Shown piece by piece: positions 3,340 to 44,341 of a stretch of DNA of 64,000 nucleotides (position 1 is the stretch's first letter; each line of letters starts with the position of its first letter). The DNA lies in IMG/VR virus record IMGVR_UViG_3300014039_000035. The stretch is one strand, 5' to 3'. The notes under the pieces are model-generated. The model made no database searches. It was not told the DNA's origin and was given only the letters and a program-made list of their open reading frames with translations. The DNA is from an uncultured virus (IMG/VR IMGVR_UViG_3300014039_000035). Taxonomy: Duplodnaviria; Heunggongvirae; Uroviricota; Caudoviricetes. The position numbers were made by a program, and so were the translations under genes.

Positions 3340-4871
3340 TTAACGTTTTCCGCCCGATTGTGCAAACAGCGACGGACCTGTGTCCTCTTTCTTCTTCACC
3401 TTGACCTTGGAAAGAATCTCCTTCTTGAAAAACCACCAGAACTTCGGGCTGATGTTTTCGCCGTGCTTTGTCCGCAGCACGTCTATGGCACGCATAAAAG
3501 CCTCCTTCTGGTTGTCGGCGTTCTTTATGCAGACGTTCACGAGAATCCAGTTGTTCTTCTTCCCCGCCAGCTTCTGACGTGCCACATACTGCTCCAATGT
3601 CTCCTCCTCGCCCGATGTGGTGGACACTATCTCTTGCAGTTCCGCTTGGTATGTCTCCTGCCTTGACGGCCAATGGTAGCCGCAGAACTTACAGTCTGTC
3701 CACGAAACGGGAACCAGCTTGTGACACTGCGGACACTCTTTGACGGGCGGGACACCGCCGCCCTGCCCGGTGTTGTGCCAAACCGACCAATCTCTGTTAT
3801 CCTCATACCTTCCCAACCTCTCGTAATTCCGTCCGAAATCCATACAGATAAACTCGCCGTTTTTTCCGTCGGCAATCCTTGAAGCCCTCCCAAGGCATTG
3901 CAGATACTTGACCAACGATGTCGTCGAAAACATCAGCATTACGACCTTGATGTCCGGAATGTCGATACCCGTGGTAAACAGACCGAAATTAACCAGAACA
4001 GGAAATTCACCCCTGGCAAAAGCATCTACCACCGCCTTGCGCTCACCGCTGTATTCCTCATCCTCGTCAAAACTGCCAGAAAGGCAGTATTTGGCCTTAA
4101 TGCCACGCTCGCAGAACTCGCGCGTAAGATTTATCGTCTGCTCACTTGAACAGCAGAATACGATACATTTCTGACCTTTACAAAGACGCTCGTAGTTCTC
4201 CACAGCTCCGACATAACGCGCCTTGGACTTGAACTTGGACGCCATCTGGCCAAGGTTGTAATCCCCACGGCTATAGTCCCACTCGACATCATCCATTGAC
4301 GGAGCGTCAAGCGAGAATAGACGGCATCGGCATAGGTAGCCCATATCTATAATTTCCTGCACCTGCGGGCCAACCACGATAGCGCCATAATCGAGTCCGA
4401 ACTGACGCATTTGTCCATAGCGGGCAGGGGATGCGGAAAGACCTACCACAAAAGCATCCTGCGTTACCCGTTGCTGAAAGACAGTATCAAACTCGGACCG
4501 ATGACACTCATCGAGAATTATAAACTTGAAAGTACAAAACCAATCAAGCCATTCTTGTTTCTTCAAACGCTGACGCAGTGTCTGCACCATCATAACGCAA
4601 CACTTCGAGTCTGGCATCTTTCGTGTTTTCGCATAAACCTCAGCCGAGTCCACGCCCCACTTCCTTGTATGCGCCGCATCTTGCTTGAGAATCTCCTCGC
4701 TATGTGCAAGAATCAAAACACGATAATTGCTCATCGATGCCATCGACCCGATAAGAACCCCTTTGCCGTTTAGCCTGACCCTGTTGGGCTTTGCACGATT
4801 ATGTGCTTATAGCTCGACAGGGCCAGTCTTGATTCGTCAATTAATTTTTGTTGATAAATACGTAAATTCAT
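3340..4871 (-). CDS. SF2 DEAD/DEAH-box helicase with C-terminal zinc ribbon; Walker A interrupted by an 8-nt insertion at 4765-4775
   Basis: Upstream mini-ORF 4871-4770 gives MNLRIYQ...VQSPTGSG*; main ORF continues GKGVLIGSM, with DECH, SASP, TGIDIP, QCLGRASR and CPQC/CKFC. Confidence 0.9.
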
Positions 4872-24894: not shown

Positions 24895-26535
24895 ATGATT
24901 ATTGACAGCAAATATACAAAAGTGTTCGTCTCCGATGATATAACCCGTTTGAAATATAACGAGTTACACGATGTTGCTGTCAATATCAGAGACCATAAGA
25001 ACAAGGTATCTGAATTCGTTTCCCATAACCTCCTAAAATATTTGGATTATTCCAATCTGACGTTTATGAAGGAAATGAGAACTGAATTCAAAAACCAAGT
25101 GGGTTCTTCGTTTGATGCTCAACTCTATACACAAGTACTGACTTGTTATCAAAACAAATTTGATAACATAAGAAAAAATCTTACTTTTGAAAAAGTCACT
25201 TATTCCCATTGTGAACTCTACAAAAGGAGCATCAAGATAAACAAGAAAGGTGATTTCAAAAAAGTAGTTAACAAACACGAAACCACAAGGTTGTCCATCT
25301 GTTTAAGTTACCTTGCACGATACGGGAATGATAATACCGTTGAATATATTAATTCTCAGATGCCTACTTGTGATGATAATAAGAAAGGCTATTACCAATC
25401 CATTTTGGATTGCTGCTCCAAGTTTGGATTCGAGCGATTGATGGGATTGGCGATGCAGAAACGTCAGCGAGCAATAGACAGATACAAGGATAACCCCATC
25501 GAATTCAAATCCCTTACATTCAGTGGCAGAAGCCGTAAAAAGAAAATCCTCGATTGGAACAAGAACTACAATTCTGAGATTAACGCATTCGTATCATTGT
25601 CAGGATTTGATAGGAAATCCATGGATATCCCCGTTAAATTTGCAAAGGATTACCACGGCTCGATGGGTGATTATTTCAAGGCGAATCCTGATTACGAATA
25701 CACCATTGTATTCAATGAACGAAAGAAATCGGTATCCATCAATCTTTGTAAGGACGGTGAAAGGTTTATCCCGGAGGCGGGTAATAACCTTATCGGGATT
25801 GACGTAAATTGCAAGCATAACTTATTCTCATTATCAGATAACTCTACGTATGATTATGACCGTCAGTTGGTTAATGATTATTGTAGGTTAGCGTTGGATA
25901 TAGATAAACGCAAGAAAAAGGATAAGGAGTACCAACCGGGAAAGAGAACCCAATGGAAACTGGATACCCTCAAAAAGAAAATGGACAAATCCGAGCAGAA
26001 CCTCATTGCCTTGATGTGCAAACAATTGGCATCAGAGGGATATAACCACATAGTGATGGAGGATTTGGATAATGGATTCGGAAAATGCTTTGTTAAGGAT
26101 AAGGATAATGAGGATATCAACTATAACCGCAAGGTCAAATTTCTTGGATTGTCAAGCCTCAAGAATGAGGTGGAGCATATTGCGAGGAACTACGGAATAG
26201 CGTTGTCCACGGTGCAAGCGAGTTACACGTCCAAGATGTGCCCAATATGCGGCTGTATCGAGGACGAGAACCGTCCCGACCAAGAGACATTCTGTTGCGT
26301 TGAATGTGGTCATTCAAGCAATGCTGATTTCAATGCGTCGGTGAATATAAGGAACAGAGTCAGCGAAGCCGTGCTTCGAGATAGGCTCTTAAAACAAAAG
26401 GATAATGGTGCCTACGAACCTAAAAAGATGAAAAGAGAAAAGGTTAAGGAGGTATTGTTATCGTTTCGGAAACACCTGCAAAAGGCAGGGAGTGAATGTA
26501 TTCAAACGGAGTTAAACACTTTTGAATATGTTTAA
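24895..26535 (+). CDS. tnpB: TnpB-family RNA-guided endonuclease (546 aa)
   Basis: RuvC GIDVN / VMEDL / NADFNA, YTSKMCPICG...CVECG zinc ribbon. Confidence 0.93.
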   Translation: MIIDSKYTKVFVSDDITRLKYNELHDVAVNIRDHKNKVSEFVSHNLLKYLDYSNLTFMKEMRTEFKNQVGSSFDAQLYTQVLTCYQNKFDNIRKNLTFEKVTYSHCELYKRSIKINKKGDFKKVVNKHETTRLSICLSYLARYGNDNTVEYINSQMPTCDDNKKGYYQSILDCCSKFGFERLMGLAMQKRQRAIDRYKDNPIEFKSLTFSGRSRKKKILDWNKNYNSEINAFVSLSGFDRKSMDIPVKFAKDYHGSMGDYFKANPDYEYTIVFNERKKSVSINLCKDGERFIPEAGNNLIGIDVNCKHNLFSLSDNSTYDYDRQLVNDYCRLALDIDKRKKKDKEYQPGKRTQWKLDTLKKKMDKSEQNLIALMCKQLASEGYNHIVMEDLDNGFGKCFVKDKDNEDINYNRKVKFLGLSSLKNEVEHIARNYGIALSTVQASYTSKMCPICGCIEDENRPDQETFCCVECGHSSNADFNASVNIRNRVSEAVLRDRLLKQKDNGAYEPKKMKREKVKEVLLSFRKHLQKAGSECIQTELNTFEYV

Positions 26536-36740: not shown

Positions 36741-37183
36741 AATGTGATGTTTAGAAATTGTCTGCGTTGCTTTCCGCCCGGTCCTTTCAGACCGATGTGG
36801 AGCCATCTCGCACCTGTCTTGGTGTTCCGCTCGGTTATGCACTGGTCAAACGCGGTGTCTGTGCGTTTCAGCCAATCCACGGCAAATCTCGTAAAACCGG
36901 CGATGTCGCCGTTCATTGGCTGCAAATCAGCGGCAAAGCCGGTAAGATGCGCCGATGTCGCCGCACCGCCGACAGCCTTGTTCAGAGCGGGACAGCGATA
37001 GCCAGATGTGATTCTTATGCCGCTGCCGTAAGCGTCACGGAGCGGCTGCAATAACTTTTCCGCAAGTTCCTTGACCGCGGACTTGACGGCCAGGTTCGGA
37101 AGACTGTTGTCAATCCCCCTTGCCATGGCCGTGCTCGATTCAGTGAACTCCTCGTAGGAGAAATTTTTTGTTAAGTCAGACAT
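36737..37183 (-). CDS. endolysin, peptidase M15A family
   Basis: NFSYEEF, ITSGYRC..LN.AVGG...SAH..G.AAD, WLH. Confidence 0.92.
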   Translation of the reverse strand: MSDLTKNFSYEEFTESSTAMARGIDNSLPNLAVKSAVKELAEKLLQPLRDAYGSGIRITSGYRCPALNKAVGGAATSAHLTGFAADLQPMNGDIAGFTRFAVDWLKRTDTAFDQCITERNTKTGARWLHIGLKGPGGKQRRQFLNITL

Positions 37184-39656
37184 TGAAATCCTCCAGTCTT
37201 GCAATCATGAACATGACCTGCACCTCGCTAACATAATTGCCTTTCAGGCTCATGGTGTCAACGATGAACGATCCTGTTGATTTTGTATACACCGATGCGC
37301 TTGCTGGATTATCGCTTGTGGTTCGTCCCAACGTGGTGAGCTGCACAAGATAGTTGCTTCCCCATGCTGACGGGATAGTGACCTTGAACGTTCCGTTCGA
37401 TTGCCAAGACACTGATATTTTGTCCGTACTCGTTGCCTTGACCATCTTGTACGTTCCCATTGATGGGGACGTGGACTTGAGGTTCATCGTTCCCATGGCC
37501 AGCACACCGAGAGGCAGCCCGTAGGTAGGAATAAGGCTCTTCCAACCCTCAGATGCACCTCTGCGGAACTTGATGCCGTTGTTCGAGAAGTCGAATCCGT
37601 AGCCACCGTTCTCCATCTTCATCCGCATGCCACCGGAGGCTTGATTATACAACGAAATGTAATTGTCGCTTCTCACGCCAAGGCACAGCCCGTTGGCGAA
37701 GTAACGTGAGACGTAAAACTCCGAGCTGAAGGTCACCCCCGACAGTGCCGTCGGCTGTCCCCATGCCGCGGATGCGGTACTGCCCGGGTTCACTGCGGAC
37801 ATGTTGCATTCTATCGTTATCCTGTGCCATCCCGCCACTGTCTGTGCCTTGCGTCCAGCCCAATCCACTGTTGACGCGCGTTCAACTGCGCTGTCTTGTT
37901 CAAAGGTGACCCCTAACAGTCCATAGGCCAATGTCGCTGTGCCTATTTTGGTTGTGCAGGCCTCATCCGAGTATGTTGTCACTACAAGGTGGACCGCGAC
38001 TGACGCACCGGACAGGGCGATGGGTCCCTCCACGTCTGTGGAAGGCTGCGTCCCGGACTTTGCGGTGAGTGATACTTTTCCCGCCCCCAAAGTTATTTCA
38101 GTCGGGGTTGACGTGTGGAATGGTCCGCACAGATTCACCGTCCTTGAATAGGCTCTGGAGGGGTCGCTGATTGGCCCACCCGAAAGTTCGGGGAACGAAC
38201 CGATACCCATTGACACGCCCGCTGCCTGTCCCCATATATATGCGGTTCTCTCTGATAGTTCTACTTGGCCGGTGGCTGTACCGAACAGAGCCGCTATGTC
38301 CGTGTATTTGTTCCCCTCGAACGTGGATGCCAAAGTACCATCGGCATCGTAGATGTTGATGGACTTGTTGTCCGGGGTTATCTCCACCCTCTGCCCGTTC
38401 TGGATTCCCGCGACGAGCCTGTTCACCGTGAGGCTGTCAATGAACGCTGAGTTGGCGGCTAGATTCTCGACATCGATGAAGTTCGCTTTGATTCTATCAG
38501 CAATCACAAGAGCCGACAGTATCGGGGCCATTGAGTTTATCTGCGCCCAGTATTCCCCGACCGCAAGCGGGATGGGGGTTGGAGAGACTGACAGAATCTC
38601 CACAACCACGTTGTCGTTGTTGGCATCGCCTGATGAATCCTTGGCATAACCTGCATAGAAATAATGCTCACCACGCGTTGGAACGGTTATCTCCACCGTC
38701 TGCGTGTTTGTCCCTGACACCTTGGCAAGATAGTCGCTGGTGCTGTAAGCCTTGTCCAGGCCGCAGACGTAGCCCCAGTCGTAGTTCGCCTCGCTGGACG
38801 CTGTAATCTTCACAGTGATTACCGTGTTGGCCGCGTAGGTAAGGAATTTTATCTTCGCCCACGTGGATTGGACTCCTTTGTTAGACGTGAACGTGTTCCC
38901 GCTCTGTGTCCAACCGCCTTCTGACGAGAACTCTACCGTGTTCCCTGACGTGTGCGTCTTGCGGCAAATGAACGCCTTCGGACGCGTTGTGTCATCGTTA
39001 GGGTCGTACATGCTTAGGGACTCTGTGAGCACCACGTCTATGAAGCCCTGCCCGTTGCTGTCCCGGTAATACGGATTGTTGTCGTTCCGGTACTCCACTC
39101 CAGCCGCCCATTTCGAGTAGCGGTAGGACAGGCCATCTTTCCCGTCCTTCCCATCTGTACCGTTCGTTCCGTCCTTGCCGGGTACCCCTTGGTCTCCCTT
39201 GAACTTGCTCCACGTGTACTTGCTTGGGTCTGTCCCCTCTGTCTGTGTAGTCTGATTGACCGCAATGCCGATGTACTCCGTCGTGGTCTTCGGAGTGTCG
39301 TACATGCTCGTAGGATAGCCGGAAGTACCGAGTGAATCAGCGTACTTTATCCACGTGTAGTAAGTCTTGCCGTCAGCACCCGGCTGCCCCGGAAGGCCGT
39401 CGGCTCCGTCTGTCCCCTTGAATAGAGACCAAGTGTATTCTGCGGCAACGTTGCTCTCAATTGGAGTGGTTTTGTTGTAGGCGAAACCGATATACTTCTT
39501 AAGCTCTCCGCCCACAACAGGGCTATCGCTGATTCCACCGCCTTGCGCGTCATCAGCGTACTTTATCCATGTGTATAGAGACTTCCCGTCCTTGCCGTTC
39601 TCTCCGTCCTTGCCGGGCCGTGCCCTAGTGACCATTTGACTTCCCTGAGCATTCAT
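37176..39656 (-). CDS. tail fibre / host-specificity protein with collagen-like repeats
   Basis: G-X-Y runs and two YTWIKYAD...YTWS.FKG modules. Confidence 0.8.
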   Translation of the reverse strand: MNAQGSQMVTRARPGKDGENGKDGKSLYTWIKYADDAQGGGISDSPVVGGELKKYIGFAYNKTTPIESNVAAEYTWSLFKGTDGADGLPGQPGADGKTYYTWIKYADSLGTSGYPTSMYDTPKTTTEYIGIAVNQTTQTEGTDPSKYTWSKFKGDQGVPGKDGTNGTDGKDGKDGLSYRYSKWAAGVEYRNDNNPYYRDSNGQGFIDVVLTESLSMYDPNDDTTRPKAFICRKTHTSGNTVEFSSEGGWTQSGNTFTSNKGVQSTWAKIKFLTYAANTVITVKITASSEANYDWGYVCGLDKAYSTSDYLAKVSGTNTQTVEITVPTRGEHYFYAGYAKDSSGDANNDNVVVEILSVSPTPIPLAVGEYWAQINSMAPILSALVIADRIKANFIDVENLAANSAFIDSLTVNRLVAGIQNGQRVEITPDNKSINIYDADGTLASTFEGNKYTDIAALFGTATGQVELSERTAYIWGQAAGVSMGIGSFPELSGGPISDPSRAYSRTVNLCGPFHTSTPTEITLGAGKVSLTAKSGTQPSTDVEGPIALSGASVAVHLVVTTYSDEACTTKIGTATLAYGLLGVTFEQDSAVERASTVDWAGRKAQTVAGWHRITIECNMSAVNPGSTASAAWGQPTALSGVTFSSEFYVSRYFANGLCLGVRSDNYISLYNQASGGMRMKMENGGYGFDFSNNGIKFRRGASEGWKSLIPTYGLPLGVLAMGTMNLKSTSPSMGTYKMVKATSTDKISVSWQSNGTFKVTIPSAWGSNYLVQLTTLGRTTSDNPASASVYTKSTGSFIVDTMSLKGNYVSEVQVMFMIARLEDFNV

Positions 39657-39659
39657 ACG

Positions 39660-40043
39660 CTATGCGCTTATCTGTCCAACGGTTGCGGTCGCCACCTCTT
39701 TCGCCTTCGCGCGCCAAGCCTGAAACGCCTCGTATTCGGCTTTGTACTCAGCCCGCTTGTCCTCTGTCAGGGATGAGGTCGAATCCATCGCCTCCTGATA
39801 GTTGGCCATTATGGCTTCCACTTTGTCAGCCGCGTAGCGGTCCCGGACTATCGCGTTCACGATGTCACCGTAATCGGAACTCTCCACGTCCACGTTCTCG
39901 GCTGTCAGAACGGTGACGTCCTCCCCGTCCATGTCCTTCCTCGTCTCCGTTGAATAATCGAAGAAAACCCTTGTGGTCAACCCCTCACGTACCGCCTTCA
40001 CTCCGGAAGGCACCGTTCCGCTGTAATCAAAATAACACTTCAT
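39660..40043 (-). CDS. small tail-associated or DGR-adjacent protein
   Basis: IVRDRY....EAI.AN...EY..FQ.WR..AK. Confidence 0.6.
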   Translation of the reverse strand: MKCYFDYSGTVPSGVKAVREGLTTRVFFDYSTETRKDMDGEDVTVLTAENVDVESSDYGDIVNAIVRDRYAADKVEAIMANYQEAMDSTSSLTEDKRAEYKAEYEAFQAWRAKAKEVATATVGQISA

Positions 40044-40047
40044 AATA

Positions 40048-40659
40048 CTATAAGTCTTGAAATTTATATGTCGATTTGCCTCCTCCGAGGTCCTGTTTCC
40101 TTATCATCACGTTCTCGACGGGGAATATTTTCGTTCCCGCCCGCTCCATTGTCTTGCACTGGTCAAGCACGTCCTTAAGCGACTGTGACCCGGTGATGAA
40201 CTTAACTCTGTCCCCGTCCTTTATCTGGACCATCACAACGTATTTGTCCATGTTCTGCTTCGACCGGTCATGGATGTCCCTTGTTCTGATGTTCGACTCG
40301 AAGTCAAGAACCGTCAGCGGCATATTGATTATGTCGGTCAGAGGTACCTGCTTGACGTCGAATATCCGTTTCCCGTCCCGGTCCCTCTGGCTTATCATCG
40401 TTATGCCTTTGTCAGCGAATCCCATTTTCTTCCCTGTTATTTTTCTCCAAAGGTTCTTGCAGTCCCCGTGCTCGCACCAACCCTTGTAGCTGTCCAGTAT
40501 CTGTCTTTTTCTCTTTCGGCTTTTGACGCGCCCCATCCCCGCTGCGAAGCGTTTCTTTATGCCCTTGCGAAGCCTCACATCCTCCTTCGAGAACACATAT
40601 CCGAGGAAATCGATGCCTCGGCCCGCGTTGACGCTTCCGTCTGTGCCGTTTCTTCTCAT
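40048..40659 (-). CDS. DGR reverse transcriptase part 3 (motif 7 and thumb) fused in frame to an accessory domain with a possible internal ATG at 40425
   Basis: RGIDFLGY, LRK.IK, SY.GW....D..NLW; then MGFADKG...IINMPLTVLDFE. Confidence 0.8.
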   Translation of the reverse strand: MRRNGTDGSVNAGRGIDFLGYVFSKEDVRLRKGIKKRFAAGMGRVKSRKRKRQILDSYKGWCEHGDCKNLWRKITGKKMGFADKGITMISQRDRDGKRIFDVKQVPLTDIINMPLTVLDFESNIRTRDIHDRSKQNMDKYVVMVQIKDGDRVKFITGSQSLKDVLDQCKTMERAGTKIFPVENVMIRKQDLGGGKSTYKFQDL

Positions 40660-40915
40660 AGTGGAGAATCGGTGCGTAGTAACTGTTTGCCTTTACCGTC
40701 ATCCCGCGCTCCTCCGCCAAGCGGTCGTAGGCGTTCAGGAGGAACCTCGCCTCTCCCTTTGTCCTTGCCAGCATGACCATGTCGTCGCAATTCCGCTCCA
40801 GCTTCACCCCGTACCTTTCTGTGAGGATGTGGTCTATCTCCATGTGGGCGAGGTTGCCAATCATCCCGCTTATGTACGCGCCAATTCGCACGCCCCGCCT
40901 TCTTCTCTCTTTCAT
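40412..40915 (-). CDS. DGR reverse transcriptase part 2 (palm motifs 4-6, NCDD)
   Basis: GVRIGAYISGMIGNL...IDH...RNCDDMVM...GMTVK. Confidence 0.8.
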   Translation of the reverse strand: MKERRRRGVRIGAYISGMIGNLAHMEIDHILTERYGVKLERNCDDMVMLARTKGEARFLLNAYDRLAEERGMTVKANSYYAPILHYEKKRHRRKRQRGPRHRFPRICVLEGGCEASQGHKETLRSGDGARQKPKEKKTDTGQLQGLVRARGLQEPLEKNNREENGIR

Positions 40916-41492
40916 CTTCAATCTCCTTTTCAATGTCCTCCCCGCAATAGTAGTCGAGCACGCAGATCTCCATTAGCCGGATGAAACGCTCGTCCTTGAA
41001 ATGATGCCTGAGAACCCTCAGCATATACCCGTGATCCAAACCTTGATAATACTTCTTGCAGTCTGACTTCGCAGTCCACGTGTGGTCCGGATAACGCCTG
41101 AGCAGACGCTTCATGCGCCTAACCCCGTAGAGGTTGCCCCGTCCCTTGATGCAGCTGGAAGTGTCCGCTATCATCTTCCCGTTGATGACCGGCTCTATCA
41201 CCTGCATTATGGCGTGGCTCATTATCTTCCACGGCATATAGTCCTCATCATCGAGACGCCTCATCTTCCCGCTGTCTGCCTTGCGGTTGACCACGCGGCT
41301 GCGATGCTCCGGGAAATCAAGGTTGAGAATCATTCCCCTCAATCTCTCCACGGTCGCGTCAATGTCCGCGTTCACAGCCCGGATGTCGCTCCGTCTTTTC
41401 GCCTTGCCGCCCCTCTGTGAGTTCTTTATGGCAAGACGTAGATTGCCATCATCCGCTATCCGCTCCAAAATAAAACCTTTCTTTTTCGTCAT
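40656..41492 (-). CDS. DGR reverse transcriptase part 1 (motifs 1-3)
   Basis: NL..A...Q.GK, GK.R, HAIMQVIEP, SCIKGRG, KSDCKKYY..LDH. Confidence 0.85.
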   Translation of the reverse strand: MTKKKGFILERIADDGNLRLAIKNSQRGGKAKRRSDIRAVNADIDATVERLRGMILNLDFPEHRSRVVNRKADSGKMRRLDDEDYMPWKIMSHAIMQVIEPVINGKMIADTSSCIKGRGNLYGVRRMKRLLRRYPDHTWTAKSDCKKYYQGLDHGYMLRVLRHHFKDERFIRLMEICVLDYYCGEDIEKEIEDEREKKAGRANWRVHKRDDWQPRPHGDRPHPHRKVRGEAGAELRRHGHAGKDKGRGEVPPERLRPLGGGARDDGKGKQLLRTDSPL

Positions 41493-41707
41493 ACTTTCAT
41501 CAATTATCAAAACCTGCATAGTTTGACTGCCCGGAACGTTCGAGACCTTGCGGCCCTACATTAGCCCCGCTCGCGACCGACACAAAGGGCCGCTCTCCCG
41601 CATTCGAGATGTTCTGACTCTCCGGCGCGACCTGCCACCGGGGTCAAGGCTGAGGGGATTCGCTGCCCCGTAGCTATCGGGGATGACGATGACAGGATTG
41701 TATGTAT

Positions 41708-41813
41708 GACGGGCGCCGTAATTCGAGTTCGTGATCGACCAAGCGTTGTTCGAGTTGACGTAGAACGGACCCGAGTTCGCCCCGTTATTAGCGGAACCAC
41801 CGACGAGACAAAC
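41708..41813 (-). repeat. DGR template repeat (TR)
   Basis: 106-bp ungapped match to the VR, rich in AAC/AAT codons. Confidence 0.95.
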
Positions 41814-41834
41814 TCCAACGACGACACTTATCCC

Positions 41835-41893
41835 CTCCCGCCTACCACAGGCGCGGGAGCGGCTCTGGCCGCTCAAAGCGACCAGCCCGCTCC
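41835..41893 (-). other. two GC-rich hairpins between the target gene and TR
   Basis: GAGCGG-G-CTGGTCGCT-TTG-AGCGGCCAG-AG-CCGCTC and CTCCCG-C-GCCT/AGGC-GGGAG. Confidence 0.55.
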
Positions 41894-41937
41894 ACCGTGG
41901 ATTACGTTTACGAGTATATGCTCTATTCAGCATCATC

Positions 41938-43254
41938 CTAAATGGACCCTCCTCCCACTATTGTCACCGGGCCGTAGAATGCAGGACGGGCGCCGCAAGA
42001 CGAGTCCGCGACCGACCAAGCGTAGCTCGAGGTGACGTAGAACGGACCCGAGGTCGCCCCGTGAGGCGCGGAACCACCGACGAGACAAACCTGTCCTGTA
42101 TCATTGCCCCAAAAGTAATTGCACCAATAGGACGATGAGTCTCCCGACAGCCCAGAAGGGATGAGGTCGAAGTACTCTCCCTTTAGCATCTTTGACACAT
42201 AGCCGGAAGATGCCAGTCTTGTGAGCTTGCGGTAAAGCCCGTTCGGATGCGAAGCCAGCTCGGAGGCTGATGGCATTCTGTTGCCGGTGTAGACGAACAT
42301 TTCCGTGCCGTCCTGCCCCTCGTTGGCTGAGTTGCCGCAGAACAGGCCTTGGATGAAGTTCCACTGGCTGTTCCACCAGTCCTCCACACCGAGCACCGAC
42401 ACATGGCTTGAGTCCGACTTGGCGTCAGAGTCACTTATTGCCACGCTGCCGGTCGCGTCACCGAGACCCTTGGTTCCACCGGTCTTCCTTAGCGTGGTTG
42501 ACGCGAGGAACGCTGTCCAGTCTAATCCCGCTGCGCCTCCGACACCCTGTCCGATGCCGGCCTGAATGTTGGCGTTGCCCCCCGTCTCACAGAGGCACAT
42601 CATCCCTATCCAGCGCATGATGTCATAGTCAACGATGCCCCAGTTCGAGCCGAATGCCTGCGCGGCATTCCAGTATGCGTTGATGGAATACCCACCGGTG
42701 AAAAAGTCAACGCCTGAGCGTGACACAAGCTTGCTGGAGACGATGGAGCCTTGGTAAGCACCAACGACAATCTTCTCTCCGTTGTCTGCCGTGCCTATGA
42801 ACCGCTTGCTTATCGGCTGCTGAGACATCCACAGGTACGGGATGTTCGTCTCGGCATCCACCTGATAGAGATAGTAGAGCTTCGGGGCGATGACCACGAC
42901 GTTGCCCTTTGTCTCATCGAGTGTCGTGCCGTCAGCGAACACCCCTGAGTTGTTCGGGTGCAGCTTGGCCGCCCGTCCGTTGGCGTCCATGAGATACCTC
43001 CCCACCTGCGCCTTGTAGGCGTTGTAGGCGGCTGTGTTGCCTACCATACCCCAAGCCGGTGATGATTGAAGCTCGTCCTTGATTGGGATACCCCAAGCCA
43101 CGGAGTGCAGAAGCTGCGTCTGCCCTGAGTTGACAGCCGCAAGGAACTCCTCCACGGTGATCCTCCGTATGGAACCGCCCACCTCCACGATGAGCGAGTC
43201 CGATTTCAGTAGTGACGCAACAGTTGTGACCGTGCCTAATTCCTGATTTGCCAT
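41938..43254 (-). CDS. DGR target protein, probable receptor-binding tail protein with C-type lectin-fold C-terminus
   Basis: GVEDWWNSQWNF, then GG.A..G...G...GAR carrying the VR. Confidence 0.88.
   Translation of the reverse strand: MANQELGTVTTVASLLKSDSLIVEVGGSIRRITVEEFLAAVNSGQTQLLHSVAWGIPIKDELQSSPAWGMVGNTAAYNAYKAQVGRYLMDANGRAAKLHPNNSGVFADGTTLDETKGNVVVIAPKLYYLYQVDAETNIPYLWMSQQPISKRFIGTADNGEKIVVGAYQGSIVSSKLVSRSGVDFFTGGYSINAYWNAAQAFGSNWGIVDYDIMRWIGMMCLCETGGNANIQAGIGQGVGGAAGLDWTAFLASTTLRKTGGTKGLGDATGSVAISDSDAKSDSSHVSVLGVEDWWNSQWNFIQGLFCGNSANEGQDGTEMFVYTGNRMPSASELASHPNGLYRKLTRLASSGYVSKMLKGEYFDLIPSGLSGDSSSYWCNYFWGNDTGQVCLVGGSAPHGATSGPFYVTSSYAWSVADSSCGARPAFYGPVTIVGGGSI
41985..42090 (-). repeat. 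DGR variable repeat (VR)
   Basis: 14 differences from TR, 13 of them at TR adenines. Confidence 0.95.
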
Positions 43255-43270
43255 ATTCTTGATTTTTGAA

Positions 43271-44341
43271 TTACATTTCCCATTCGACCTCCGACACGAC
43301 CACCACATCCTTCTCCGCCCCGTCTACGTCCGTCTGTGTTGTCGTGACCGTCACAAGGTTGGTAGCTCCCGTGTTCTGCCCCGTGGCCGGGATTCTCAGA
43401 AGCGACTGCCACGTGTCCTTGTCCATGATGTTGGACACCCACTTTGCCCCGGTGATGCCGGTGAGCTCTGTGTTCGTCCGCACGTTAATCACATAGGCCT
43501 CCAGATAGACCGGCTTCCCATCGCTGACCTCCCTGTTCGCCCCGTTGGTGCTCCGGTCTGATGCCGAGACCACGAAGCGGTGCTCCAGATGGTAGTCGTC
43601 AAGGGTGTCGGTTATTCGTATTGCCGCCCTGAACACCGGAGCGGTGTCATCGGCTGACTTGTAGAACTCAGCTATGATGAGCTGTGTCCCGTCCACGTCG
43701 CTGCGCGTGACAGTTATCGTTGCACCGCTCTTGTCGGACCAGAGGGTGTCATCCTTGTACCATTTCACCACATAGCCGGTCTGTTCCGTGCCTCCAAGGT
43801 AGAGTTTGGTCATGACCGCTGTCGACTTCACATTCTCGGTAAGCTGCTCCGAAGTCGCATTGATGGTACCGATATAGGAAGACGAGCCCATCGGCTGGAT
43901 CTGAATGTCAATGCTCTTCGTGAGCTGGTAATCGACACCACCGGATGAAGCGGTGCATGAATATGTCAGAGTGTCGCTTGCCTGATTGTCCTTGCTCGCA
44001 AGGTTGGCGATTATCCTCAAAGCCCCCGTGACGGTGTTCATCTGGAACTTGCCCGTGGAATCCGTCCGCCAATCGCCCGACACCGCACCGTTGAAGTTCA
44101 GCGTGCTGGTGTTGTACTTCCATTGATGAGCTCCGAGAGTCACCGTGTTGACCCTTGCTGATGTCACCTGCGGGGTCAGCACCGGCTGGTTGTCCGGCAC
44201 CGTCCAGTCCGGTGTGGGAGAACCAGTGTCTGGATCCACGGCTTGGAAAAGCGGTTGACTGCTTCCGATGCTGATGAAGAAGGTGTCACCGCTTCTGAGG
44301 CGTTTCACCGTTAGACTGTTCTGCGTGCTGTAGTTGTTCAT
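43271..44341 (-). CDS. tail structural protein (Ig-like, beta-rich)
   Basis: Position in tail module; PDW...QP.L.P, KWYKD. Confidence 0.7.
   Translation of the reverse strand: MNNYSTQNSLTVKRLRSGDTFFISIGSSQPLFQAVDPDTGSPTPDWTVPDNQPVLTPQVTSARVNTVTLGAHQWKYNTSTLNFNGAVSGDWRTDSTGKFQMNTVTGALRIIANLASKDNQASDTLTYSCTASSGGVDYQLTKSIDIQIQPMGSSSYIGTINATSEQLTENVKSTAVMTKLYLGGTEQTGYVVKWYKDDTLWSDKSGATITVTRSDVDGTQLIIAEFYKSADDTAPVFRAAIRITDTLDDYHLEHRFVVSASDRSTNGANREVSDGKPVYLEAYVINVRTNTELTGITGAKWVSNIMDKDTWQSLLRIPATGQNTGATNLVTVTTTQTDVDGAEKDVVVVSEVEWEM

Follow-up and report, generated by a model that had tools for sequence, protein, structure and literature searches.

DGRs are, to our knowledge, the only natural systems known for the targeted hypermutation of proteins. 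In Bordetella phage BPP-1 the reverse transcriptase (RT), bRT, is one chain of 328 amino acids which works with Avd. This enzyme (PDB accession number 8ub7) shares its RT motifs and the A-specific mutagenesis from template repeat (TR) to variable repeat (VR) with the RT described here, which comes from a 64,000-nucleotide stretch of an uncultured virus (IMG/VR IMGVR_UViG_3300014039_000035), the whole of which is called the window below. It differs in that the window RT lies in three frames, with extra segments at the junctions and a C-terminal domain of ~125 amino acids. The RT of Hankyphage (Bacteroides phage p00, BK010646) belongs to the same family and possesses the C-terminal domain, with 37.9% identity to our ORF3; this protein and the fused relatives P0074–P0136 are, however, single ORFs without the polybasic tract of our second junction.

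A 2021 paper (Microbiome, PMC8008677) describes the same RT layout in Quimbyvirus, of the LoVEphage group, and suggests that two frameshifts are programmed there. The three-frame layout is therefore not new, having already been published for related Bacteroides phages. A literature search for the Quimbyvirus RT in overlapping frames returned this paper alone, and one for split reverse transcriptases together with DGRs found no paper among main texts; the word "frameshift" is absent from the main text of LoVEphage papers PMC8525569 and PMC12629997. Within this type, the L012 cluster shares with the window the two junctions, their ATGs and the polybasic tract, and its ORF3 is 53–54% identical to that of the window over residues 13–202, equal to LoVEphage MW660583, BI-TP1 and PV4-TP1. 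By contrast, Quimbyvirus has two VRs (PMC8008677) where one was found in the window, and the present comparison favors separate initiation over the two programmed frameshifts of that paper. The window RT forms a separate lineage, with an ORF3 ~54% identical to the Quimbyvirus type and, as its nearest named relative, a Cryptobacteroides MAG at 58%. The RT region had no blastn match in the phage collection, and its DNA had none in the closest genome (G001) or virus record (G002).

A +1 change of frame is also found in prfB (RF2), where the site is fixed: CUU-UGA-C with an in-frame stop. Window-type junctions differ from it in sharing no site, and in that the stop comes after the switch and not at it. 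The prfB mechanism operates in Bacteroidia as well (PMC10798248). Lastly, the frameshifted DGR RTs of the DiGReF survey (PMC3521204) resemble the present one in having a TR/VR pair with only A-mutations.

DGR cassette and reverse transcriptase of the window

The cassette comprises the following features.

41938..43308, minus strand: DGR target gene, tail protein of 456 aa (phrog_5302, E 1.5e-36)
41975..42090, minus strand: VR, at the 3' end of the target gene
41698..41813, minus strand: TR
41519/41492..40656, minus strand: ORF1, N-terminal piece of the RT, motifs 1–3, fingers
40915 (ATG; TTG at 40933)..40412, minus strand: ORF2, palm piece, motifs 4–6
40659..40048, minus strand: ORF3, motif 7, thumb helices and C-terminal beta-rich domain
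40913..40915, minus strand: putative start ATG of ORF2 (junction 1), formed within GAT-GAA of the ORF1 frame
40657..40659, minus strand: putative start ATG of ORF3 (junction 2), formed within TAT-GAG of the ORF2 frame
40622..40657, minus strand: polybasic tract EKKRHRRKRQRG, end of the conserved part of ORF2

TR and VR (116 nt) differ at 18 positions, 17 of them TR adenines, which bears out the A-specific change that the earlier note had reported for the VR. The window shows this single VR, which lies at the C-terminus of the target protein and ends 37 nt ahead of the target stop; 206 nt separate the TR from the start of the RT. The locus thus combines a TR/VR pair with adenine mismatches, a VR at the target's 3' end and a DGR-clade RT beside the TR. 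Mutagenesis at adenines is ongoing: the VRs of related strains differ at TR-adenine columns, and between the window and the related X1 contig 13 of the 14 VR differences listed fall on such columns. The "SQ" dipeptide in motif 4, a hallmark of the DGR RT clade (PMC3521204), is absent from the window, which reads IGAYISGMIGN (SG) against a consensus of GAYxSQPIGNF in 25 relatives; the clade of the window departs from this hallmark and still shows A-mutagenesis.

No candidate ORF for avd was located between target, TR and RT, save a frame across the TR itself, and no avd-like ORF stands beside the RT in the ORF list of 38500–43500, as judged from the list and not from folds. A 127-aa ORF after the RT gave no accepted Pfam match (FKBP_N, E 0.051, below the cut-off) and no PHROG match. 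Phage structural genes are present in the window, and a tRNA scan of it for a frameshift-suppressor tRNA returned 0 genes.

As the earlier note had proposed, the RT is encoded (41492–40048, minus strand) in three overlapping ORFs, each +1 to the preceding one and, as in Quimbyvirus, with breaks between motifs 3/4 and 6/7. When the fused relative P0074 is aligned to Bordetella bRT (8ub7_A; E-value 1.2e-13), break 1 immediately precedes "VGIPIG" (motif 4) of bRT and break 2 lies at its "APVS-RGINFLGY" (motif 6/7), so that both fall between motifs as claimed. PHROG phrog_1423 ("Reverse transcriptase") matches ORF1 (E 1.9e-30) and ORF3 (E 3.7e-14); ORF2 has only a sub-threshold match to Pfam RVT_1 (18.4 bits vs a cut-off of 29.6) and carries GVRIG...NCDD.

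The conserved part of ORF1 (41492..40902) ends in the acidic stretch CGEDIEKEIEDEREKK (40946..40902) and is followed by an out-of-frame tail (40901..40656). In ORF2, GVRIG begins at 40894 and the catalytic NCDD lies at 40792..40781; its conserved part (40915..40622) is likewise followed by an out-of-frame tail (40621..40412), and the polybasic tract EKKRHRRKRQRG, despite its position beyond the ATG of ORF3, is read in the frame of ORF2. ORF3 consists, in order, of a variable N-terminus (residues 1–12), GR.IDFLGY (motif 7), the thumb and the beta-rich domain of ~125 aa, the latter beginning at invariant Met79 (40425). Comparison of relatives revealed that its frame is constrained from G13-R14 onward, and residues 1–17 have a pLDDT <50 in the structure model. 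A Foldseek search of the ORF3 model against the PDB gave nothing at E <= 0.001, the best match being weak and OB-fold-like (PrgE, E 0.012).

The finer points of the earlier description fared unevenly. The ~12–20 extra codons per break are roughly right (junction 1 compared with L074/L080, junction 2 with L074/P0013/P0022), each break has its in-frame ATG and purine run, and in the window the ORF1 TGA does overlap the ORF3 ATG (ATGA). The possible fourth ATG (40425) exists, but it is the in-frame Met79 of ORF3, invariant in A2, and the stop of ORF2 near it is not conserved, 25 of 40 lineages stopping at the I-D codons of IDFLGY.

Conservation among relatives

The three-frame pattern is present in 93 of 108 related stretches, and the two break points that the earlier note had singled out are both kept across 40 lineages (related sequences under 90% nucleotide identity); since these are phylogenetically related, counts over them are not independent trials. 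All named hosts are Bacteroidales, with 22 genome-contig relatives checked. The layout occurs in the isolates B. acidifaciens DSM 15896, B. oleiciplenus YIT 12058, B. intestinalis AF14-32 and Paramuribaculum intestinale DSM 100749, and in the induced phages BI-TP1 and PV4-TP1. Phages with this RT family are highly prevalent and rank with the commonest temperate ones of the human gut; LoVEphage was found in about 8% of 1,241 viromes (PMC12629997). Because the mode of RT production decides the dosing of DGR activity, it matters how the three frames are expressed, and the cultured lysogens now available make either answer below testable.

The X1 contig, ~98% identical to the window (72 substitutions and 0 gaps over 3501 nt), keeps both breaks. 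In the ORF1 frame 12 of the 14 listed X1 substitutions in 40959–41400 are synonymous, and the one at 40640 is synonymous in ORF2 and changes D to G in ORF3. Each RT segment is under purifying selection, and the comparison shows which frame is selected at each nucleotide of the overlaps. The breaks conserved in 40 lineages and the diversification of VRs at A columns support a functional RT, not a decaying one. Conservation of the breaks also rules out here the inactivation by which the DiGReF survey (PMC3521204) had read such frameshifts.

Fused RTs of 372–493 aa (n=63) were also found. The split and fused states interconvert among close relatives and the tree needs at least five changes of state, with fused P0030 adjoining split L067 and the break-1-only forms P0013/P0022 inside the window's clade; a metagenome scan for the DNA of the latter did not recover it. 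The 73 near-length matches resembling ORF3 are mostly stand-alone proteins, with M and a variable stretch before GR.IDFLGY.

The junctions

At junction 1 the downstream frame contains an ATG 5–9 codons before the G of G[VI]xIG in 39 of the 40 lineages, L075 having TTG; at junction 2 it is found in 40 of 40, 11–21 codons before x-IDFLGY. Intervals of that size would contain 0.16 and 0.33 ATGs, respectively, by chance. Both ATGs are formed by an upstream-frame NAT codon and the following G. The residue specified by this codon varies (D21/N15/Y3 at junction 1, N15/D9/Y8/H8 at junction 2) and its third-position T does not, being invariant at junction 1, where all other third positions tabulated have an entropy >=0.87, and showing zero entropy at junction 2. 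In the background, NAY codons followed by G end in T 653 times and in C 339 times. In L115/L125 the usual ATG of junction 2 is lost (CAC AAG GAA) and TAT GCG supplies one 7 codons upstream, at a site which is TAC in seven other sequences (six relatives and the window). By this comparison of sequences, the ATGs are themselves under selection.

Segments of 43 nt at the two junction ATGs fold at -2.8 and -3.6 kcal/mol, as against -2.7 for the true ORF1 start and a mean of -7.0 for 582 other ATGs in the +1 frame, and are A- and purine-rich. In low folding energy and A-richness, the start context taken from PMC6847099, the junction ATGs thus resemble the ORF1 start, unlike the 582 background ATGs. 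The purine-rich context may merely reflect the coding of K, R and E. An A at -3, which the earlier note had pointed out, does not discriminate, its frequency being 0.7 and 0.4 at junctions 1 and 2, respectively, as against 0.3 for the ORF1 start and 0.5 for the background. One lineage of three contigs (L111/L112/L114) lacks the ATG of junction 1 (GAT>TCA), and its open +1 frame offers just one start-like codon, GTG, which lies 18 codons upstream. Its VRs differ at 21 columns, all 21 of them on TR adenines, so this ATG is not indispensable.

Conservation bounds the zones in which the frame is switched: in the upstream frame it extends to DE... (junction 1) and RxR[QK]R[GS] (junction 2), and in the downstream frame it begins at RG and GR.IDFLGY, respectively. 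All 40 lineages have the polybasic motif RxR[QK]R[GS], with ORF2-frame coding periodicity (entropy 0.90/0.41/1.51); fused forms lack it, the tract being lost on re-fusion. The switch zone of junction 2 (-2 to 13 nt) contains no motif common to the 40 lineages, and between the ATG and RG of junction 1 these share no shift motif (slippery, hungry or stop). RNAalifold gave 0 conserved pairs at either junction (40 sequences).

Translation of the reverse transcriptase

We cautiously favor a split RT composed of three separately initiated polypeptides; the preference rests on conserved, relocating ATGs and on the absence of any shift site. This keeps the multi-subunit enzyme proposed in the earlier note and drops its leapfrog coupling. 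P1 would be the fingers piece, with motifs 1–3 and the acidic C-terminal stretch; P2 a palm of ~100 aa, with motifs 4–6, the catalytic NCDD and a conserved polybasic tail, (K/R)n-RKRQRG; and P3 would contain motif 7, the thumb and the C-terminal beta-rich domain. P2 and P3 would each begin at an internal ATG, located within the ORF before it but in its +1 frame; in Bacteroidales an ATG can serve as start without a Shine-Dalgarno sequence where its surroundings are A-rich and unstructured. The three chains would then join non-covalently into an active DGR RT. We infer initiation at these ATGs, the assembly of the pieces and any role of the acidic and basic tails. We know of no precedent among RTs for a palm fragment of ~100 aa as a separate chain. 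Initiation in Bacteroidetes is not led by Shine-Dalgarno pairing and is tuned by mRNA structure (PMC6847099). When the pieces were modeled as separate chains, complex prediction gave 0.79 (partner, the ORF2 piece) and a control with chain 3 replaced gave 0.73, scores too close to count for or against assembly. The out-of-frame tail of ORF1 has a median of ~35 codons vs ~16 expected from the density of stops in the shadow frame; with no selection for early termination, P1 would carry junk sequence.

A heterotrimeric DGR RT would, on balance, hold for phages of the Quimbyvirus/LoVEphage type in general, and the published reading of two programmed frameshifts would then be revised. It would be the first RT known to us with its catalytic core in separate chains. 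It would also imply that an RT core can withstand being split between fingers and palm and between palm and thumb, a property useful for engineering split RTs, and that Bacteroidales ribosomes can initiate efficiently within an ORF that is being translated.

Two programmed +1 ribosomal frameshifts, giving one full-length RT whose level could be held low by low efficiency, are possible but unlikely. This option of the earlier note agrees with the proposal published for Quimbyvirus (PMC8008677), but no conserved signal for it was found. The upstream frame is selected right up to the point where the downstream one takes over, so a continuous polypeptide is possible, and the lineage of L111/112/114 is active without the junction-1 ATG. 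In the window's lineage GGG-C occurs at both junctions (GCG GGG CGT and CGC GGG CCG), where Gly-tRNA could re-pair in +1, and contig L119, with one G fewer, is open across the junction as EREKKAGVRIG. Ribosomes could be stalled by the conserved polybasic peptide, whose conservation just before the frame change and loss on re-fusion would likewise agree with a nascent peptide that stimulates frameshifting. Of the 40 lineages, 25 stop ORF2 right after the switch and 26 encode the Ile of IDFLGY by ATT, as against 31% ATT in the background. There is, however, no slippery or hungry site common to the 40 lineages, nor any conserved RNA structure at the junctions (RNAalifold, 40 sequences). The downstream RG/GR codons impose the recurrent AAG-AGG and NGG-N patterns, which occur in frame without a break elsewhere in these genes (AAG-AGG 12 times, GGG 161 times). 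AGG as a hungry codon was rejected, since it is the commonest in-frame Arg codon (315/1487). The model leaves unexplained the invariant ATG and its relocation when lost. Even the +1 shift of prfB reaches only ~7% in F. johnsoniae (PMC10798248), so that two weaker sites in series would yield very little product. The Shine-Dalgarno-like AAGGAGAGG of the window's clade was considered as a prfB-type stimulator and rejected, since it overlaps codons of the already shifted "RRG" and such pairing is unused by Bacteroidia ribosomes (PMC10798248). Double +1 recoding without a canonical site, if true, would represent a new kind of frameshift signal.

A mixed scheme, in which ORF3 is made by termination-reinitiation and ORF2 is started independently or by a frameshift, seems improbable. 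Ribosomes ending ORF2 at the TGA or TAA over "I-D" would scan back 38–68 nt to the ORF3 ATG, and back-scanning after termination is known in bacteria. The distance is short and fixed where ORF2 stops at +5 nt (25/40), the median tail of ORF2 being 1.7 codons vs ~14 expected; but ORF2 ends elsewhere in the other 15 lineages, among them the window (+203 nt), and the ORF1 stop is never near the ATG of ORF2.

Restoration of frame by RNA-polymerase slippage or ribosomal bypassing (hopping) is highly improbable. Both junctions have purine-rich tracts, and Gly codons flank the gap at junction 2 in 28 of 40 lineages, yet most lineages lack a long homopolymer run, and no stop codon or hairpin occurs at the take-off site. 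Only some lineages are compatible with bypassing between matched Gly codons for take-off and landing, the upstream motif ending in Ser rather than Gly in 11 of 40, where the two codons mismatch.

Leapfrog coupling, by which the ORF1 stop over the ORF3 ATG would couple translation, is scarcely credible. The ATGA overlap of the window is a quirk of its lineage, the ORF1 stop being scattered 23–278 nt after the GVRIG glycine codon in the 40 lineages (in L001/L004/L005, for example, ORF1 ends at 3879/3708/3654 and ORF3 starts at 3834/3834/3807).

Sequencing or assembly error, or a decaying pseudogene, may be virtually dismissed: frameshifted DGR RTs were earlier taken as recently inactivated, e.g. 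in Bacteroides sp. 9_1_42FAA (PMC3521204), and genuine decay exists in the family (L059/L060, where 11 nt including the YCDD motif are lost), but both breaks recur in isolate genomes and induced phages, each segment is under purifying selection, and the VRs are still being rewritten at A columns.

The DGR cassette and its reverse transcriptase

The window carries a whole diversity-generating retroelement (DGR) on the minus strand, with target gene, variable repeat (VR), template repeat (TR) and reverse transcriptase (RT) in that order:

43308..41938, minus strand: DGR target gene, a tail protein matching phrog_5302
42090..41975, minus strand: VR, at the 3' end of the target gene
41813..41698, minus strand: TR
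41492..40656, minus strand: RT ORF1 (motifs 1-3), matching PHROG phrog_1423 'Reverse transcriptase'
40915..40412, minus strand: RT ORF2 (GVRIG...NCDD; motifs 4-6), with a sub-threshold Pfam RVT_1 match only
40659..40048, minus strand: RT ORF3 (motif 7/thumb), matching PHROG phrog_1423 'Reverse transcriptase'

The RT runs from ORF1 through ORF2 to ORF3, each lying +1 relative to the preceding one. Across 116 positions, TR and VR show 18 mismatches, 17 of these at TR adenines. Bordetella bRT (8ub7_A) was aligned with P0074, a related protein in which the RT is fused (E 1.2e-13); break 1 (ORF1/ORF2) falls immediately before the motif-4 'GIPIG', and break 2 (ORF2/ORF3) between 'APVS' and 'RGINFLGY'. 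The ORF layout, RT matches and TR/VR mismatches thus bear out the earlier note's description of an RT in three ORFs accompanied by an A-biased VR.

Conservation of the three-frame layout

The ORF1 protein as query retrieved five viral contigs at 59-65% identity. The same three ORFs are present in the related loci L001, L004 and L005, whose DNA aligns without gaps over break 1 and with 6/9-nt indels only at break 2. An alignment of ORF3-like proteins (A2), used as a further query, added 80 viral loci (of 90 found), 22 from species-representative genomes and 17 from metagenomes. Frames were classified by local tblastn with three window segments in 107 loci plus the window, some loci being one contig fetched twice. 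Both breaks were kept (+1,+1) in 93 of the 108 stretches; three were fully fused (L074, L106, L107), three had break 2 only (L080, L082, L083), four showed other patterns (L011, L059, L060, L105) and five were incomplete. The 17 metagenome loci comprised 14 with +1,+1, one fused at break 1 (L119) and two incomplete. The 90 near-complete three-frame loci reduced to 65 distinct sequences and 40 clusters below 90% nucleotide identity, here termed lineages. Both breaks also persist in a contig from sequencing run X1, which over 3501 nt matches the window at ~98%, differing by 72 substitutions and no gap; among the 40 of 72 differences listed, 12 of 14 in the conserved part of ORF1 are synonymous.

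The three-frame RT is therefore confirmed. Sequencing or assembly error and decay, the latter entertained in the earlier note, are excluded as causes, since the breaks are conserved, the X1 contig is gapless and the VR is still changing. Genuine decay is found in two relatives of L048 (L059:2150-2470 and L060), where, unlike at the conserved breaks, an 11-nt deletion takes out GCGATGATAAC, the catalytic YCDD motif, and brings an additional frame change. At junction 2 of L011, a LoVEphage-type locus, the A-run before the ORF3 ATG holds 8 A instead of 6, so that ORF2 and ORF3 share one frame; this may reflect a sequencing error in homopolymer length or genuine variation.

Named hosts of the relatives are Bacteroidales in every case, including the isolates B. 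acidifaciens DSM 15896, B. oleiciplenus YIT 12058, B. intestinalis AF14-32 and Paramuribaculum intestinale DSM 100749. The ORF3 piece recurs at 53.7% identity in the induced phages BI-TP1 and PV4-TP1 and in LoVEphage records, and the BI-TP1 annotation gives the RT region as three separate CDSs. The phenomenon is already known, and to it the window adds a new, divergent example: the layout was reported for Quimbyvirus, with adenine-specific VR substitutions, and two programmed frameshifts were proposed (PMC8008677). Quimbyvirus and LoVEphage (PMC8525569) are both given as ~95% identical to one B. dorei prophage (CP011531), and the word 'frameshift' is absent from the accessible text of PMC8525569 and of PMC12629997, a 2025 Nature paper on induced gut prophages. 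An older survey (PMC3521204) enters a frameshifted RT of Bacteroides sp. 9_1_42FAA as inactivated; that RT may or may not belong to the present family.

Frame usage at the breaks

At break 1, constraint in the ORF1 frame extends up to and including (D/N)-E, and in the ORF2 frame begins at R-G (R 40/40, G 39/40). At break 2, the polybasic motif RxR[QK]R[GS] occurs in the ORF2 frame in all 40 lineages, downstream of the ORF3 ATG, and its tract shows coding periodicity in that frame (entropy 0.90/0.41/1.51 by codon position). Constraint in the ORF3 frame begins at G-R-x-I-D-F-L-G-Y (G 39/40, R 40/40), spaced -2, 1, 4, 7, 10 or 13 nt from the polybasic motif. Two X1 substitutions agree with these frames: that at 40640 is silent in ORF2 (D>G in ORF3), and that at 40618 is silent in ORF3 (R>G in ORF2).

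Separate initiation or frameshifting

From the sequence patterns, we lean towards three separately initiated RT pieces. A downstream-frame ATG lies 5-9 codons upstream of the motif-4 glycine in 39/40 lineages at break 1 (TTG in L075; chance 0.16), and 11-21 codons upstream of x-IDFLGY in 40/40 at break 2 (chance 0.33). Each consists of an NAT codon of the upstream frame followed by G; this codon can specify different residues (D21/N15/Y3 at break 1; N15/D9/Y8/H8 at break 2) but always ends in T, whereas background NAY codons before G end in C in one third. L115 and L125 have lost the usual break-2 ATG and carry TAT GCG seven codons upstream, where the six other relatives listed and the window have TAC. 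In their A-rich, weakly folded context the junction ATGs resemble the start of ORF1 and differ from 582 other +1-frame ATGs of these genes; PMC6847099 describes Bacteroidetes lacking Shine-Dalgarno use, with start signals of this unstructured A-rich kind. Of the earlier note's multi-subunit RT with leapfrog coupling, in which the ORF1 stop overlaps the ORF3 ATG (ATGA), the split is thus favoured by these conserved, relocating ATGs, and the coupling is rejected because the ORF1 stop position is not conserved across the 40 lineages. This out-of-frame stop lies exactly 110 nt past the motif-4 glycine codon in 13/40 lineages and 38 nt past it in 7/40, probably as a shadow of conserved ORF2 codons.

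Several observations speak against separate starts. The L111/L112/L114 lineage lacks the break-1 ATG, its open frame offering only a GTG 18 codons upstream, and its three VRs vary at 21 columns, 21/21 on TR adenines. The ORF1 out-of-frame tail is longer than expected (median ~35 versus ~16 codons) and the ORF2 tail much shorter (1.7 versus ~14). IDFLGY has ATT as its Ile codon in 26/40 lineages against a 31% background, and GGG-C stands at both junctions in the window's own lineage. L119:911-996, on a 1910-bp contig ~98% identical to the window and labelled cov 2.2 (low coverage), reads through break 1 as EREKKAGVRIG: it has GGG where the window has GGGG, and with one G fewer ORF1 and ORF2 share a frame. 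Its two possible readings are an error due to low coverage and a naturally occurring fusion. At the protein level the polybasic motif is kept directly upstream of the switch and is missing from the re-fused P0013, P0022, P0030, L074 and P0074, which would fit a nascent peptide that stimulates frameshifting as well.

Two +1 ribosomal frameshifts seem the less likely explanation. No heptamer is common to the narrow switch windows of the 40 lineages, and RNAalifold on 40 sequences found no conserved RNA structure at either junction. The downstream RG / GR codons account for the recurrent AAG-AGG and NGG-N patterns. Within these genes Arg is most often encoded by AGG, and in-frame AAG-AGG and GGG are also present at other sites. 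In F. johnsoniae, even the canonical prfB +1 site gives a shift of only ~7% (PMC10798248). Mixed or other routes take up the remaining probability.

Evolution of fused and split forms

A quick IQ-TREE analysis used 59 rows, comprising 40 three-frame lineages (one row per cluster, other members left out), 6 other loci and 13 database proteins. All three-frame forms fell in one 45-row clade (SH-aLRT 99), which also includes the fused P0074/P0075 and the break-1-only P0013/P0022 and P0030; L067 is sister to P0030 (SH-aLRT 95). The sister clade contains fused L074 and break-2-only L080/82/83, whose insert (NETKTRKRKRGKR) is similar to that of the main clade. Since the tree requires at least five state changes, fused and split states have interconverted. 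The root was set by the chosen outgroup and long branches were flagged, so no order of events is claimed. At junction 1, P0074/P0075 read ...EEQERKKRYCRWA..., then 19 residues up to RGVTIG; the ORF1-frame tail of split forms, an out-of-frame shadow of RGV(R/P)IG (...KKERCANW), resembles this stretch, a likeness that could be accidental or left over from the origin of break 1.

Ongoing mutagenesis

Strain comparisons show that the DGR is active. Within the VR, 13 of 14 differences between X1 and the window, among those listed, fall on TR-A columns. L116 and L117, whose RT pieces match the window's at 98-100% identity, each show 15/15 VR mismatches to their own TR at adenines, and their VRs as listed differ from that of the window. 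Motif 4 of the window's clade reads IGAYISGMIGN (40894-40862, minus strand), with SG in place of the SQ hallmark seen in most relatives and in DGR RTs at large; A-mutagenesis continues all the same.

Neighbouring features

No avd-like gene was found near the RT among the ORFs of 38500-43500. After the thumb, ORF3 carries an extra domain of ~125 aa (residues ~79-203; 40048-40425, minus strand) that starts at an invariant Met and alone matches phrog_19665 (105-aa profile). The predicted fold, at pLDDT ~80, is rich in beta strands and has a single helix; Foldseek returned weak OB-fold-like rows only (PrgE, E 0.012). Elsewhere, a 546-aa ORF (24895-26535, plus strand) has its match in phage transposase families (phrog_506, E 3.4e-26); the window's other genes include those for helicase, primase, major head, tape measure and tail. 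Immediately after the RT lies a 127-aa acidic ORF (39660-40043, minus strand) with no accepted Pfam or PHROG family, kept at the same position in L001 (4442-4798) and L004/L005 (4467-4814). Next comes an 826-aa tail-fibre-like protein (37176-39656, minus strand); its PHROG matches are to 'host range and adsorption' and tail groups, and G-x-x repeats of collagen type lie close to the N-terminus.
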